NCBI GenBank assembly: GCA_964016885.1
Contig: OZ024740.1
Span: 321,842,001 to 321,906,000, forward strand
Length of the DNA stretch: 64,000 bases
Direction of reading: 5' to 3'
DNA from: Eledone cirrhosa
Lineage: Eukaryota
The position numbers and the translations under genes are program-made. The notes beneath the pieces were generated by a model. That model did no database searches. It saw nothing but the letters and a program-made list of their open reading frames with translations, and had not been told where the DNA came from. Shown here piece after piece: positions 273 through 8,380 of the stretch; position 1 is the stretch's first letter, and each line of letters opens with the position of its first letter.

Positions 273-3200
273 GTATCGAGCGTTGCCTTTCCTTTGGACA
301 ACATCTTATACAGTGTATATATAAGTTGTGGTAACACTGGTGTCAAGCTGTATCGAGCGTTGCCTTTCCCTTGGACAACATCTTATACAGTGTATATATA
401 AGTTGTGGTAACACTGGTGTCAAGCTGTATCGAGCGTTGCCTTTCCCTTGGACAACATCTTATACAGTGTATATATAAGTTGTGGTAACACTGGTGTCAA
501 GCTGTATCGAGCGTTGCCTTTCCCTTGGACAACATCTTATACAGTGTATATATAAGTTGTGGTAACACTGGTGTCAAGCTGTATCGAGCGTTGCCTTTCC
601 TTGGACAACATCTTATACAGTGTATATATAAGTTGTGGTAACACTGGTGTCAAGCTGTATCGAGCGTTGCCTTTCCTTTGGACAACATCTTATACAGTGT
701 ATATATAAGTTGTGGTAACACTGGTGTCAAGCTGTATCGAGCGTTGCCTTTCCCTTGGACAACATCTTATACAGTGTATATATAAGTTGTGGTAACACTG
801 GTGTCAAGCTGTATCGAGCGTTGCCTTTCCTTTGGACAACACCTTATAAAGTGTATATATAAGTTGTGGTAACACCGGTGTCAAGCTGTATCGAGCGTTG
901 CCTTTCCTTTGGACAACATCTTATACAGTGTATATATAAGTTGTGGTAACACTGGTGTCAAGCTGTATCGAGCGTTGCCTTTCCCTTGGACAACATCTTA
1001 TACAGTGTATATATAAGTTGTGGTAACACTGGTGTCAAGCTGTATCGAGCGTTGCCTTTCCTTTGGACAACATCTTATACAGTGTATATATAAGTTGTGG
1101 TAACACTGGTGTCAAGCTGTATCAACCTTTGCCTTTCCTTTGGACAACATCTTATACAGTGTATATATAAGTTGTGGTAACACTGGTGTCAAGCTGTATC
1201 AACCTTTGCCTTTCCTTTGGACAACATCTTATACAGTGTATATATAAGTTGTGGTAACACTGGTGTCAAGCTGTATCAACCTTTGCCTTTCCTTTGGACA
1301 ACATCTTATACAGTGTATATATAAGTTGTGGTAACACTGGTGTCAAGCTGTATCAACCTTTACCTTTCCTTTGGACAACATCTTATACAGTGTATATATA
1401 AGTTGTGGTAACACTGGTGTCAAGCTGTATCAACCTTTGCCTTTCCTTTGGACAACATCTTATACAGTGTATATATAAGTTGTGGTAACACTGGTGTCAA
1501 GCTGTATCGAGTGTTGCCTTTCCCTTGGACAACATCTTATACAGTGTATATATAAGTTGTGGTAACACTGGTGTCAAGCTGTATCGAGCGTTGCCTTTCC
1601 CTTGGACAACATCTTATACAGTGTATATATAAGTTGTGGTAACACTGGTGTCAAGCTGTATCGAGCGTTGCCTTTCCCTTGGACAACATCTTATACAGTG
1701 TATATATAAGTTGTGGTAACACTGGTGTCAAGCTGTATCGAGCGTTGCCTTTCCCTTGGACAACATCTTATACAGTGTATATATAAGTTGTGGTAACACT
1801 GGTGTCAAGCTGTATCGAGCGTTGCCTTTCCCTTGGACAACACCTTATACAGTGTATATATAAGTTGTGGTAACACTGGTGTCAAGCTGTATCGAGCGTT
1901 GCCTTTCCTTTGGACAACATCTTATACAGTGTATATATAAGTTGTGGTAACACTGGTGTCAAGCTGTATCGAGCGTTGCCTTTCCCTTGGACAACATCTT
2001 ATACAGTGTATATATAAGTTGTGGTAACACTGGTGTCAAGCTGTATCGAGCGTTGCCTTTCCTTTGGACAACATCTTACACAGTGTATATATAAGTTGTG
2101 GTAACACTGGTGTCAAGCTGTATCAACCTTTGCCTTTCCCTTGGACAACATCTTATACAGTGTATATATAAGTTGTGGTAACACTGGTGTCAAGCTGTAT
2201 CGAGCGTTGCCTTTCCTTTGGACAACATCTTATACAGTGTATATATAAGTTGTGGTAACACTGGTGTCAAGCTGTATCGAGCGTTGCCTTTCCTTTGGAC
2301 AACATCTTATACAGTGTATATATAAGTTGTGGTAACACTGGTGTCAAGCTGTATCGAGCGTTGCCTTTCCTTTGGACAACATCTTATACAGTGTATATAT
2401 AAGTTGTGGTAACACTGGTGTCAAGCTGTATCGAGCGTTGCCTTTCCTTTGGACAACATCTTATACAGTGTATATATAAGTTGTGGTAACACTGGTGTCA
2501 AGCTGTATCGAGCGTTGCCTTTCCCTTGGACAACATCTTATACAGTGTATATATAAGTTGTGGTAACACTGGTGTCAAGCTGTATCGAGCGTTGCCTTTC
2601 CCTTGGACAACATCTTATACAGTGTATATATAAGTTGTGGTAACACTGGTGTCAAGCTGTATCGAGCGTTGCCTTTCCCTTGGACAACATCTTATACAGT
2701 GTATATATAAGTTGTGGTAACACTGGTGTCAAGCTGTATCGAGCGTTGCCTTTCCCTTGGACAACATCTTATACAGTGTATATATAAGTTGTGGTAACAC
2801 TGGTGTCAAGCTGTATCGAGCGTTGCCTTTCCTTTGGACAACACCTTATAAAGTGTATATATAAGTTGTGGTAACACTGGTGTCAAGCTGTATCGAGCGT
2901 TGCCTTTCCTTTGGACAACATCTTATACAGTGTATATATAAGTTGTGGTAACACTGGTGTCAAGCTGTATCGAGCGTTGCCTTTCCCTTGGACAACATCT
3001 TATACAGTGTATATATAAGTTGTGGTAACACTGGTGTCAAGCTGTATCGAGCGTTGCCTTTCCTTTGGACAACATCTTATACAGTGTATATATAAGTTGT
3101 GGTAACACTGGTGTCAAGCTGTATCGAGCGTTGCCTTTCCCTTGGACAACATCTTATACAGTGTATATATAAGTTGTGGTAACACTGGTGTCAAGCTGTA

Positions 3201-4778
3201 TCGAGCGTTGCCTTTCCTTTGGACAACATCTTATACAGTGTATATATAAGTTGTGGTAACACTGGTGTCAAGCTGTATCGAGCGTTGCCTTTCCCTTGGA
3301 CAACATCTTATACAGTGTATATATAAGTTGTGGTAACACTGGTGTCAAGCTGTATCGTGCGTTGCCTTTCCTTTGGACAACATCTTATACAGTGTATATA
3401 TAAGTTGTGGTAACACTGGTGTCAAGCTGTATCGAGCGTTGCCTTTCCTTTGGACAACATCTTATACAGTGTATATATAAGTTGTGGTAACACTGGTGTC
3501 AAGCTGTATCGAGCGTTGCCTTTCCCTTGGACAACATCTTATACAGTGTATATATAAGTTGTGGTAACACTGGTGTCAAGCTGTATCGAGCGTTGCCTTT
3601 CCTTTGGACAACATCTTATACAGTGTATATATAAGTTGTGGTAACACTGGTGTCAAGCTGTATCGAGCGTTGCCTTTCCTTTGGACAACATCTTATACAG
3701 TGTATATATAAGTTGTGGTAACACTGGTGTCAAGCTGTATCGAGCGTTGCCTTTCCCTTGGACAACATCTTATACAGTGTATATATAAGTTGTGGTAACA
3801 CTGGTGTCAAGCTGTATCGAGCGTTGCCTTTCGCTTGGACAACATCTTATACAGTGTATATATAAGTTGTGGTAACACTGGTGTCAAGCTGTATCGAGCG
3901 TTGCCTTTCCCTTGGACAACATCTTATACAGTGTATATATAAGTTGTGGTAACACTGGTGTCAAGCTGTATCGAGCGTTGCCTTTCCTTTGGACAACACC
4001 TTATAAAGTGTATATATAAGTTGTGGTAACACTGGTGTCAAGCTGTATCGAGCGTTGCCTTTCCTTTGGACAACATCTTATACAGTGTATATATAAGTTG
4101 TGGTAACACTGGTGTCAAGCTGTATCGAGCGTTGCCTTTCCCTTGGACAACATCTTATACAGTGTATATATAAGTTGTGGTAACACTGGTGTCAAGCTGT
4201 ATCAACCTTTGCCTTTCCTTTGGACAACATCTTATACAGTGTATATATAAGTTGTGGTAACACTGGTGTCAGGCTGTATCAACCTTTGCCTTTCCTTTGG
4301 ACAACATCTTATACAGTGTATATATAAGTTGTGGTAACACTGGTGTCAAGCTGTATCGAGCGTTGCCTTTCCTTTGGACAACATCTTATACAGTGTATAT
4401 ATAAGTTGTGGTAACACTGGTGTCAAGCTGTATCGAGCGTTGCCTTTCCTTTGGACAACATCCTATACAGTGTATATATAAGTTGTGGTAACACTGGTGT
4501 CAAGCTGTATCGAGCGTTGCCTTTCCCTTGGACAACATCTTATACAGTGTATATATAAGTTGTGGTAACACTGGTGTCAAGCTGTATCGAGCGTTGCCTT
4601 TCCTTTGGACAACATCTTATACAGTGTATATATAAGTTGTGGTAACACTGGTGTCAAGCTGTATCGAGCGTTGCCTTTCCTTTGGACAACATCTTATACA
4701 GTGTATATATAAGTTGTGGTAACACTGGTGTCAAGCTGTATCGAGCGTTGCCTTTCCTTTGGACAACATCCTATATAG
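273..4778. repeat. 77-bp tandem satellite, ~58 highly homogeneous copies
   Basis: Monomer GTATCGAGCGTTGCCTTTCCYTTGGACAACATCTTATACAGTGTATATATAAGTTGTGGTAACACTGGTGTCAAGCT recurs at 273, 350, etc., with no spacers. Confidence 0.98.
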
Positions 4779-4980
4779 CAGGCATGCCAAACATGCGGCC
4801 CTTTGCAATCACACCTGCGACCCGCACAAAGGATTTTACAGCGCGAACATGTTTTATCTTCGTAATATAAAATTAAAAAAAATTAGTTGTAATATGTGCA
4901 ATTAGTCGTCGTGTATGGTCCTCAGATAACCTATATATGACCCACGAGCCCCTCGGGGGACCCTCAGTTTGACATGCCTG
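4779..4980 (+). mobile_element. hAT MITE, internal-deletion derivative of the element at 5729-8077
   Basis: First ~100 bp align to 5729-5850 and last ~100 bp align to 7988-8077; both TIRs are present; followed by ATCTAGAC. Confidence 0.9.
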
Positions 4981-5178
4981 ATCTAGACTGTATTTTAACC
5001 TGTAATCCCATGTTTCATTTCTGTCGCACCTCATTTCTTCCCTCCCCATCTCTCTCTCTTTTTATCTGTGATATTTGAATCTACTATAATTTGAGCGCAC
5101 CTTATTCATATATATATATGTTTTTGCATGTCAGTTAGATTTAAACTTACAATGATTGGCATTATATATATATATATA

Positions 5179-5715
5179 GGAATAACAAGGTTGTTACGAA
5201 AGAGCCAGAAGATTGACAAGTCGACCCTCAATATGACTAACAACTTTAGGAAAGCCATGAACGACATCACATCTTTTTAACTTTGATTTTGAAAGTAGGT
5301 TTATAATTATTAATTTCCATTATACTTTTGTAGCTGTCTCGATAGCATAGTTGGAGGAATCATAGACGGTGGTGATCCCCGTCTGAAGTTCGATCCTGGT
5401 CGGTAGTATGGTTCCCGGTTAACCTTTTCAGTTTTTTTCTATGGGATGTAAAATAAAACTGAAAAAGATTAATTGTACCTCTTGACCAGGATTGAATCCA
5501 AGACCAGGATCTCCGTCGTCTCTAGTACCTACCGCTAGGCCACTGAGACAGTTCCGAAAATCTGCTGAAAATTCATACTTATAAACATACTTTCAAAATG
5601 TTCAATACAAAACGATGTGGTGTCGTTCATGTCTTTCTTAATGTTATTGTTCCTACTTAAGGTCGACTTCTAAATCATTTGGGCGTTTCATAAACTACAT
5701 CCTCGTTTTGTTTCT
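5179..5715. mobile_element. Degenerate foldback (palindromic) element with two convergent tRNA-like heads
   Basis: Arms pair, e.g. CATGAACGACATCACATC / GATGTGGTGTCGTTCATG and TTTTGAAAGTAGGTTTATAA / TTATAAACATACTTTCAAAA; centre ~5445. A/B-box-like motifs at 5343-5354 and 5388-5396 (+), and at 5531-5542 and 5489-5499 (-). Confidence 0.7.
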
Positions 5716-5728
5716 CATCTATCTAGAC

Positions 5729-8077
5729 CAGGCATATCAAACATGCGGCCCGCGGGCTGCATGCGGCTCTTTGCAAGCACACCTGCGGCCTGCACAAAGG
5801 TATTTACAGCGCGAGCATGTTTTATCTTCGTAATATAACATTTAAAAAAAATTTCGATACGATTGTTTTGATTTTTTGTGCGATTTTTGTCAACTACTTT
5901 TAACTTTCGACGAATCACACACAACTCATTAACAGTTGTAAACAGAAAACTTTCTTTCAAAATTCCGAAAGTTTTTCTTTTAAAATGGCTAGTGCTCCTC
6001 CTCCAGCTAAGAAATAAAAAGGAAATTGAACGAAGGGCGAGTGTTTCATGAAAAGTTGGAATTACAGTATTTTTGCACAACGGTGAACGGAAAGATACAC
6101 TGTTTAATTTGCAACAACTGCATCGCCACGACAAAAGAGTACAATTTGAAAAGGCATTAGGAAACGAACCATCGATCTTACGATAAATATGAAGGCCAAA
6201 TGCGTGTTTCAAGACACAGCAACAGACCTGTTTTATGTAAATCTAGGAAGAGAATGTCTTTCCGTTACTGCAAGCTATGAACTAAGCGAATGTTCGCCAT
6301 GAGTGGGAAATCTTACGGTGAAGGAGATTTTGTAAAACAATGCCTTGTAAAAACAGCTGAAATTGTATGTCCAGAGAAAGCCCAGTTATTCAAAGACATT
6401 TGATTAACCAGGAACACTGTTGCTGAACGGATTGATGAAATGTCAGGTGATCTGAAACAACAGTTGAAGGCTGTATCATCAAGGTTTGAACATTTTTCTA
6501 TTGCTATTGATGAGACCACTGGAATAGCACAGCTTGCATTCTTCATTAGGGCCTGTGACAGTGAATTTAATATTTATGAAAAAATGATTGAACTGGTCCC
6601 CATGCATGACACTATAACAAACCAGGACATCTTTGAGAAGGTCGAGCAGGTTCTGCATGAATATGGTTTTGATTTGAGTAAATTTGCATGCTTATCTACT
6701 GACGGTGCTGCGAATATGGTTGGCAGACATAATGGTGTTACTGCCAAGTTACGAACAAAAATAAAAAAACTCGCATCCGGATTCATCCTTTGCACATTTT
6801 CACTGTATTATTCAGCAGCAAAATTTGTGTTCAAAGATTTTAAAATTGCATCATGTGCTTAGCTTGGTCACAAAGACTGAACTATAGCAGAGGCCGTGCT
6901 CTCAACCACCGTCAGTTCAATCAGTTGTTGGAAGATATGGATAATAAGTTCACCGATGTTCCATTCTACACAGAAGTCTGCTGGTTGTCATGTCACAAAG
7001 TGCTGAAAAGATTCTATTTGTTGAGACAAGAAATAATTATGTTTTTGGAGATGAAAGGTCAAAACAAAGATGAAATAAAAGATGAAAGTTGGCTCCAAGA
7101 TCTGGCTTTTGCTGTGGATATTACTGCACAATTAACTGATCCCAATTTGAAATGACAAGGTAAAAACAAACTCATCACTCAGTTGTATGATGACATCAAG
7201 TGTTTCATTAGAAAACTAAGCTTATGGAAGTCACAGTTGTCAAATGAAAATTTAGTTCATTCTCCTACGCGCAAAGAGCTGAAAAACACTGCCAATACTG
7301 ATTCTGTACTTAGCTTTGCTAAGTATGACAATCACCTGAAATTGTTGTCAAAGGAATTTCAGGAAAGATTTTGTGCATTATTCTCAGTACTATTCACCTT
7401 TGATGTTGCCAAGGCAGAAGAAAGCCTGCAGATGGAGCTATTGGAAATGCAGTCAGATTCTACACTCAGAGCAAAGTATCTTGAAGTGGGGATACCTGGT
7501 TTCTTTTCATACCTTCCTGAAAAGTTAAAAATCTTCAGAAAGTTTGCCACAAAAATGATGGCAATGTTTGGTTCTACCTATGTGTGTGAACAGTTATTTC
7601 CTTCATGAAATTAACAAAAAAACTTCTTAGAGAACAAAGGTGACTGATCAACACTTGTCATCTCTGATCAAAGTCGGAACTGTACAGACATTTCAGCCAG
7701 ACATACCAAAAATTGTCAACAAAAAGAGGTGTCAAGCCTCAGGACAAAACACTAAAAATGGTTGAATAGTAGCAAATAAATGTTCAGTTTTGAACAATGT
7801 ATTTGTACAATGTATTTGTTTCTGTTGCAAGCTGTAAGTATATGTTACCATTTAAAATGTTAGTTCTTTGCTAAATCACTTCATTACTTTGTATTCATGA
7901 ATGCTGCTAAAACATTTGTATGTACATTGTATGTTTCTAAATTTAAGTAACACATTTTTCTGCAATAAATTTTATTAAATGACTTTAATTAGTTGTAATG
8001 TACACAATATAGTTGTCGTGTGCGGCCCTCAGACAACACATATGTGACCCTTGGGGATCCTTAGTTTGACATGCCTG
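5729..8077 (+). mobile_element. hAT (Charlie/SPIN-Buster type) DNA transposon, full-length but decayed
   Basis: TIR CAGGCATATCAAAC...GTTTGACATGCCTG enclosing a transposase pseudogene; preceded by ATCTAGAC, matching the NTCTAGAN Charlie target preference. Confidence 0.92.
5985..7770 (+). pseudogene. hAT transposase (GTF2IRD2/EPM2AIP1-like family), multiple stops and frameshifts
   Basis: N-terminal CLIC...NLKRH zinc finger; FSIAIDETT..AQLAFFIR; STDGAANMVG; LNHRQF; TEVCWLS; WLQDLAFAVDIT; MFGSTYVCEQLF, spread across ORFs 6440-6862, 6853-7155 and 7183-7608. Confidence 0.92.
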
Positions 8078-8380
8078 CTATATAGTGTATATATAAGTTG
8101 TGATAACACTGGTGTCAAGCTGTATCGACCGTAGCCTCCCCCTTCGACAACATCCTATATAGTGTATATATAAGTTGTGATAACACTGGTGTCAAGCTGT
8201 ATCGACCGTAGCCTCCCCCTTCGACAACATCCTATATAGTGTATATAAATATGAATTGTGATAACACTGGTGTCAAGCTGTATCGACCTTTGCCTTTCCT
8301 TTGAACAACATCGTATATAGTGTATATATTATAAGTTGTGATAACACGGTTGTTAAGTCCTATCAACATTTCCCTTGGAT
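8078..8380. repeat. Continuation of the 77-bp satellite, ~4 diverged copies
   Basis: Same monomer with variants (GATAACAC, GACCGTAGCCTCCCCCTTCG, CATCCTATATAG), decaying by ~8380. Confidence 0.9.

Follow-up and report, generated by a model that had tools for sequence, protein, structure and literature searches.

hAT transposons move by cut-and-paste. Compound DNA transposons have been described as usually bacterial (PMC9587614; the literature is cited, here and throughout, from extracts of the papers). In maize, the ends of two hAT elements can bound a segment that is excised and reinserted as a unit, the Ac macrotransposon (PMC9910405), and composite insertions are known in which donor flanks are fused by repeats or microhomology and a new 8-bp duplication is made (PMC4270019). 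Teratorn of teleost fishes is a composite of a piggyBac transposon and a herpesvirus, for which it was proposed that the transposon lay in a concatemer-forming replicon and that a unit was excised between two of its copies (PMC10175614). The Buster/SPIN (GTF2IRD2-like) hATs and their MITEs (miniature inverted-repeat transposable elements) give 8-bp duplications with the consensus nnnTAnnn (PMC3517528). Here we analyse a composite hAT insertion in Eledone cirrhosa, at positions 4771-8085 of the window, i.e. of the whole stretch of 64,000 nucleotides under study (assembly GCA_964016885.1, contig OZ024740.1, positions 321,842,001 to 321,906,000). A MITE on the left and a long hAT element on the right are separated by a spacer; one pair of matching 8-mers brackets the whole (outer pair), a second pair borders the spacer (inner pair).

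The composite is not an event at the window locus but an old family, probably from one founder. This family of about 70 copies has the layout MITE, one or two circularly permuted units of a second repeat (X), long hAT. On balance we favour the view that it is a compound hAT which moved as one piece and was born once, by head-to-tail duplication of a single hAT-occupied site in X.

A dispersed family that probably moved as a unit

With the spacer as a query against the 3.0-Gb assembly (1796 contigs), 40 of 2837 candidates were scored and yielded 133 matches, most of them as two pieces in swapped order compared with the window. The pieces belong to repeat X of about 760-800 bp, which has (TA)n on either side, lacks terminal inverted repeats and reads part B - inner 8-mer - part A. 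Its uninterrupted junction, the empty site, occurs 233 times exactly in the genome. The window spacer has the order A - (TA)n - B and corresponds to X cut open at the inner 8-mer; judged by this alignment, it is a circular permutation of X, a repeat unrelated to the hAT parts.

A pattern search allowing at most 3 mismatches placed left junctions (element right end into part A) at 41 places and right junctions (part B into element left end) at 46, with no hits for the reversed-pattern controls. 17 junction pairs lie within 20 kb, which gives 70 places in all, on many contigs; 16 of these pairs are in composite order, one is on opposite strands and none is in the order of a simple insertion into X. 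Searching from the MITE instead, 4 of the 30 best matches continue into the inner 8-mer and part A. The 73 candidate loci that were fetched comprise all 70 places and a few more; L075 and L117 are two parts of one composite. When a site classifier was applied to them and to 39 free X loci, it counted 41 junctions of the type right-end/A, 47 of the type B/left-end and 59 empty ones, and their succession was right-end/A, empty, B/left-end throughout. An internal empty site, hence a second X unit, is present in 17 of the 73 candidate loci.

All 32 resolved left elements have the size of a MITE (167-226 bp); of the 30 resolved right elements, 26 are long or deleted hATs and 4 are MITEs. None of the 73 fetched loci has a long element ahead of the left junction or X within 3.5 kb behind the right junction, and only one (L112, a fold-back) has X ahead of the left junction. 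Among the 41 and 46 junctions there is no simple hAT-in-X insertion at the occupied position, below called the x site. Other composite copies diverge from the window copy by 11-16%, and all groups, composite X and free X, lie about 7% from their own majority sequence.

Both outer ends could be resolved by script at 15 of the 73 candidate loci. Their outer 8-mers agree at 8/8 positions in six loci, at 7/8 in four, at 6/8 in four and at 5/8 in one, so that 14 of 15 reach at least 6/8 where chance would give 12%, and they are distinct between all 15 loci. Four further loci have matching outer 8-mers as well (L052, L113 and L123 with 8/8, L116 with 7/8). Since the outer 8-mers match and are yet specific to each locus, the unit very probably moved by its outer ends, and unit transposition with such locus-specific duplications follows the behaviour of the Ac macrotransposon (PMC9910405). 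The transposase almost certainly brought the MITE's left end together with the long element's right end and moved the whole unit. It would have excised the entire 2-4 kb and inserted it with a new 8-bp duplication, and the inner 8-mers carried along would be relics of the site into which the founder had inserted.

Chance does not explain the inner match. Matching duplications were found for 30 of 40 newly sampled solo elements and for 24 of 26 sampled earlier, and 52 of the targets of these 54 solo MITEs and long elements are distinct. Position 4 is T and position 5 is A in 52 of 54 targets each, as expected of a central TA. Two targets drawn from this family profile match at 8/8 in 0.2% of draws, the inner 8-mer is the target of one of the 54 simple copies, and its junctions recur at 41 and 46 places.

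These results bear on the two readings offered in an earlier note on this DNA. The first, a macrotransposon that transduced the DNA between two neighbouring hAT copies, holds for the spread, as MITE-spacer-element units with different outer duplications do exist (15 distinct ones at the 15 resolved loci), but the cargo is a permuted second repeat and not transduced host DNA. The second, alternative or replicative transposition or integration of a circle, had the spacer as the donor's right flank fused to its left flank. This describes the anatomy correctly, and the empty site that it calls for was found; however, the 233 exact copies sit in a dispersed repeat and not at one donor locus. The suspicion that target preference made the inner match partly coincidental was not borne out, with one such target in 54.

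Founder and origin of the composite

Composite X units carry alleles that are rare in free X copies, the latter having been sampled partly with a bias towards similarity to the window and partly from exact empty-site matches: T at position 22 (24 of 28 composite against 0 of 27 free copies), T at position 479 (37 of 39 against 2 of 40) and C at position 637 (30 of 35 against 1 of 42). Internal second X units have them as well (7/7, 13/15 and 13/15, respectively), and no column separates internal from terminal units within composites. These private alleles, shared by the internal units, point to one founder X. Left MITEs likewise carry private alleles, at 87, -84 and -18. At position 87, A is found in 27 of 30 left MITEs against 5 of 51 free MITEs, and also in 3 of 3 readable MITEs on the right side, a pattern that would indicate one founder MITE. 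In a tree of part B, built from the 81 of 104 rows with at least 450 columns filled, the composites cluster (9 changes versus 26.5 in shuffles; none of 500 as low).

Ten two-unit loci show only baseline sharing of departures between their X units. As most two-unit loci are without an excess of shared departures, a two-unit form was itself mobile; that all such forms are local duplications was rejected, since it holds at most for L123 and L124 (and for L055 and L131 on few sites). We also dropped allele -20, common to left and right ends, as proof of a common origin, because 8 of 32 left MITEs, including that of the window, have the free-MITE base there.

The inner 8-mers are identical and in register, the X cargo is exactly permuted and no simple insertion was seen; this points to one occupied site that was duplicated head-to-tail, the route proposed for Teratorn (PMC10175614), or to a fusion of flanks following alternative transposition, as demonstrated in maize (PMC4270019). 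We consider it somewhat probable that the founder arose from one insertion in X, then concatemer formation and later the exchange of one flank. A single hAT would have inserted into one X copy, and the concatemer could have formed through X's own tendency to head-to-tail multimers or through a circle, or else by transposition with ends from two sister chromatids and repair in the (TA)n runs flanking X. The flank fusion at a (TA)n run would fit a maize-type composite insertion, which is made by reversed-end transposition with re-replication. Recombination within the homologous ends would then have put a different member of the family, of MITE or of long form, in the place of one flanking element. 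The element ends are mosaic among copies, and exchange between family members therefore occurs. The variants of today may be due to later events: an X unit lost between direct repeats, sequence inserted into the (TA)n run, deletions in the interior and conversion of ends.

Several observations weigh against this origin. The left MITE and the right hAT differ at eight near-fixed sites in both ends (45, 87, -84, -83, -65, -34, -27 and -18), and at five of them the left MITE matches free MITEs. A duplication would begin with identical flanks, and as the MITE and hAT ends differ, an extra flank-replacement step is needed, of which no intermediate was found. Nor was the founder locus found among the 70 places. 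The part B tree is star-like; 2 of its 78 branches are starred, and the composites are not one supported clade. In L123 and L124 the X units' shared departures (0.47 and 0.29) exceed the between-locus 99th percentile of 0.24, which suggests that some two-unit forms arose or were homogenised locally. At 58 of the 73 loci, one or both outer ends were not resolvable. Finally, the x site is a good target, and by the profile of the 54 targets two independent insertions in neighbouring X units would share site and orientation in about 7% of cases.

The last point leads to a founder made by independent MITE and hAT insertions at equivalent sites of a pre-existing tandem array of one X copy, with the same family and the same spread; this corresponds to the first reading of the earlier note. 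We regard this as unlikely, though it deserves to be taken seriously: it accounts for flanks of different subfamilies (the eight distinguishing sites) and avoids the flank-replacement step, free X dimers are common among the fetched loci, and the internal empty site in 17 of 73 loci is what a cut from a trimer would leave. Of the target weight predicted for an X unit, 7.5% falls on the x site, and an in-register double in the same orientation has a chance of about 7% once both insertions land in neighbouring units. However, the array must be hit twice within 0.8-1.6 kb, with both insertions in register and in one orientation, and as the 41 and 46 junctions include no simple insertion into the x site, it is not a recurrent hot spot. 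Moreover, composite X units are indistinguishable, whereas first and second units of free X dimers differ at one column by the rule used (703, in part A), which is weak evidence. Also conceivable, but in our view rather speculative, is an insertion of the cut-and-paste hAT into an intermediate, circular or of rolling-circle type, of a second, unclassified TA-targeting element; the hAT would then have cut a cointegrate-like compound transposon out of the concatemer, which was amplified to about 70 copies.

It is improbable that the composites formed repeatedly, by a circle of X and hAT joining resident solo elements at many loci, with outer duplications that are those of the resident. Models of this kind have been published for KolobokP multimers (PMC9587614) and for IS26 (PMC7986276), they predict exactly the observed geometry, and mosaic element ends would suit them. 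Yet the residents would be random members of the family, whereas private alleles are common to the left MITEs (A at position 87 in 27 of 30 against 5 of 51 free ones), the MITE is always on the left with no long element seen there, and the copies lie about 7% from the majority sequence, like free X, as after one burst; the private MITE alleles largely refute this model. An assembly artefact or a chance match of a preferred target can practically be set aside. The window locus does lie inside a satellite array and no public run containing it was found, but there are 70 places on many contigs, diverged by 11-16% from the window copy, the inner 8-mer is only one of 54 targets, and the satellite register is kept. 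A single insertion in X followed by head-to-tail duplication is thus the reading that we retain for the founder.

The window locus and its component elements

Coordinates of the window features are collected in the table; those of the earlier note, for the 8-mers, the MITE (4779-4980), the 732-bp spacer and the transposase copy (5729-8077), were all confirmed, as was its statement that the outer pair and the inner pair each match.

Table. Features of the composite insertion and its host site in the window
Feature	Position	Strand	Basis or remark
77-bp satellite array, left of insertion (host site)	340..4770	.	satellite period, register
Outer target-site duplication, left copy	4771..4778	+	8-mer match and satellite register
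hAT MITE, left flanking element, 202 bp	4779..4980	+	family of ~2500 first-look candidates; composite-specific allele at position 87 of long-form 5' end
Inner 8-mer, first copy	4981..4988	+	equals X positions 594-601
Spacer, 732 bp (parts A + (TA)n + B)	4989..5720	+	coordinates rechecked
Part A: 3' portion of X (X 602-758), with pyrimidine microsatellite	4989..5162	+	X alignment
(TA)n run linking X tail to X head	5163..5175	+	later insertions here in many sister copies
Part B: 5' portion of X (X 53-593); first ~52 bases of X absent in window copy	5176..5720	+	X alignment
Inner 8-mer, second copy	5721..5728	+	exact match to first
Putative Buster/SPIN-type hAT element, right flanking element, 2349 bp	5729..8077	+	ends and transposase homology
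Broken transposase gene	6017..7759	+	alignment to 613-aa (amino acid) homologue
Outer target-site duplication, right copy	8078..8085	+	8-mer match and satellite register
77-bp satellite resumes, ~three diverged units	8086..8346	.	satellite period, register

The host site is a 77-bp satellite with about 61 units in 340-8346. From the satellite anchor at 4728 to that at 8112 the step is 3384, i.e. 77 (one unit) + 3299 (insert) + 8. The register is thus kept, and the outer 8-mer pair is therefore a true target duplication in the satellite. The outer 8-mer is present again in the next two satellite units, at 8155 and 8232; the inner one occurs only twice in the window, at 4981-4988 and 5721-5728. 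The satellite units right of the insertion are of another variant than the nearly homogeneous left array, and the last unit on the left ends like the right-hand variant. No public sequencing run was found that contains the window locus (best share 0.07), nor any read set spanning it. However, judged from the assembled copies, misassembly of this locus cannot account for a family on many contigs with 84-89% identity between copies.

Both elements of the window have terminal inverted repeats of about 14 bp. The MITE is related to the long element by internal deletion, the two being about 90% identical in the 94 bases at the 5' end and 80% identical in a 3' stretch of 64 bases. By transposase homology, short inverted repeats and 8-bp targets with a central TA, the long element is probably a Buster/SPIN-type hAT. 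Its transposase in the window is broken, with four frame segments and six stops relative to a 613-aa homologue (57-79% identity). The longest open frame among the fetched copies, 385 aa in a sister copy, has 103 matches at E <= 1e-50, many of them named GTF2IRD2-like or SPIN-DOC-like. Pfam matches of the transposase are weak and below the cut-off, and a PDB sequence search with one transposase fragment gave nothing significant. As far as the fetched copies show, the composite family looks extinct. Outside one amplified cluster, 13 of the 20 best transposase matches sit in composites, in a sample biased towards the query. The cluster itself (G000:C25:19.3-23.3 Mb, L159-L162) holds 20 of the 40 best matches; three of its four fetched loci have an identical left flank, and it is therefore a segmental amplification of one insertion.

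Other details of the element family concern single loci. In the left end, short direct repeats enclose 18 bp (window 5751-5768) that are present or absent in MITEs and long elements alike and were therefore lost more than once or are exchanged. The element right end stands in tandem, with a 98-bp period, at G000:C1466:156555-157174. L164, L166 and L167 are solo elements with own duplications and with end alleles enriched in composites; they are possible solo derivatives of composites, comparable to solo long terminal repeats. The transposase at L106:15-1169 (-) (proteins P0004, P0006, P0012 and P0015) is 81-83% identical to Trichuris suis (nematode)-labelled proteins and 64-67% identical to those labelled Octopus sinensis; on this similarity, horizontal transfer is possible. 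L057 (3305-3424) and L112 (5681-6944) are fold-back palindromes whose centres lie in or between element ends; the flank recurs as an inverted copy (97% identity over 120 bp and 92-94% over about 150 bp, respectively), and both look as if formed after breakage at the composite.

As for X, the cargo repeat of 0.8 kb, it has no long reading frame. Part B of the window copy contains an imperfect palindrome of about 490 bp (69%), an Rfam search of 4700-5800 gave a single chance match (E 0.99), and a query with the 5' end of X returned plain X copies only. For X as a possible non-autonomous Crypton, which would share its termini with a tyrosine-recombinase element, 9 DUF3504 matches were obtained, without similarity to X within their loci of about 3 kb, flanks which may be too short. 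Free X is also present as head-to-tail dimers, common among the fetched loci. Those at L058-L060, L063, L065 and L066, some with a common truncated start and an identical downstream repeat, are possibly a mobile dimer family. L089 (G000:C1:441188370-441228225) is a tandem array with a 1.68-kb period, in which each unit has a 390-bp piece of X that includes the empty site. In contigs from runs of five other organisms the hAT family is present, but among the pieces listed none bridged either inner junction and part B was almost uncovered, which gives nothing firm on the composite in other species.

Significance and comparison with known systems

The composite carries only repeat DNA and has no evident host function, and no effect on the host is implied. 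Its interest is that of a natural multi-copy compound transposon which an animal genome has assembled from ordinary hAT parts, and whose copies are numerous enough for its history to be traced. It means that the end of a MITE and a distant hAT end, 2-4 kb away, can prevail over the inner ends or circumvent them with sufficient frequency for a family to be founded, and that a cut-and-paste enzyme can give rise to flank swaps like those of cointegrates. For repeat annotation it is a warning: such composites would be split into three unrelated repeats without own target duplications. The literature searched, whose scope excluded Repbase and subscription journals, did not yield any account of a compound hAT family dispersed in an animal genome, so that novelty is unproven; in the main text of an octopus repeat paper the words 'composite' and 'nested' are absent (PMC13282606).

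With Buster/SPIN elements, the flanks share short inverted repeats, a homologous transposase and nnnTAnnn duplications (PMC3517528). The ordinary members move singly, whereas here a share of the long copies sits in composites. As its flanks come from families that also move alone (the 54 solo copies with own duplications) and as we infer that the region between them was mobile as a discrete unit, the composite agrees with the definition given for bacterial compound transposons in the extract of PMC9587614. Like compound and IS6/IS26 pseudo-compound transposons of bacteria, it has direct flanking repeats, an outer duplication and swapped inner flanks as in cointegrates (PMC7986276). IS26 structures, however, arise by replicative transposition and recombination (PMC7986276), while here each locus has new outer duplications of its own and a selectable passenger gene is lacking. 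In place of two identical elements at the junctions, we found a MITE facing a long element with eight distinguishing sites, and four loci with a right-side MITE.

KolobokP (layout LTDR-INT-LTDR) resembles the composite in its two directly repeated, independently mobile flanks, its solo forms and its multimers (PMC9587614). It has a transposase and a His-Me nuclease in the internal region between long direct repeats and forms a lineage across seven phyla (PMC9587614); in the composite, the right flank holds the transposase, the two flanks are unequal and a foreign repeat makes up the interior. By their defining features, the composite is thus not an IS26-type cointegrate, a KolobokP or a Teratorn.

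The maize Ac/Ds cases are individual alleles that came from two nearby elements in maize stocks (PMC4270019, PMC9910405), in contrast to an old family dispersed in an animal genome, which numbers about 70 copies and whose cargo is a permuted repeat. Teratorn comes close to the proposed origin, since there, too, one unit would have been cut out between two transposon copies and spread as a composite (PMC10175614). If the hAT had indeed landed in a circular or rolling-circle intermediate of X, which we think doubtful, the family would preserve a fossil trace of how one element's extrachromosomal replication was caught by another, and would be the counterpart, in an animal and on a small scale, to the route of Teratorn. 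It differs from Teratorn in being built on a Buster-type hAT, in its cargo, a non-coding repeat of 0.8 kb and not a herpesvirus, and in its flanks, a MITE and a long element.

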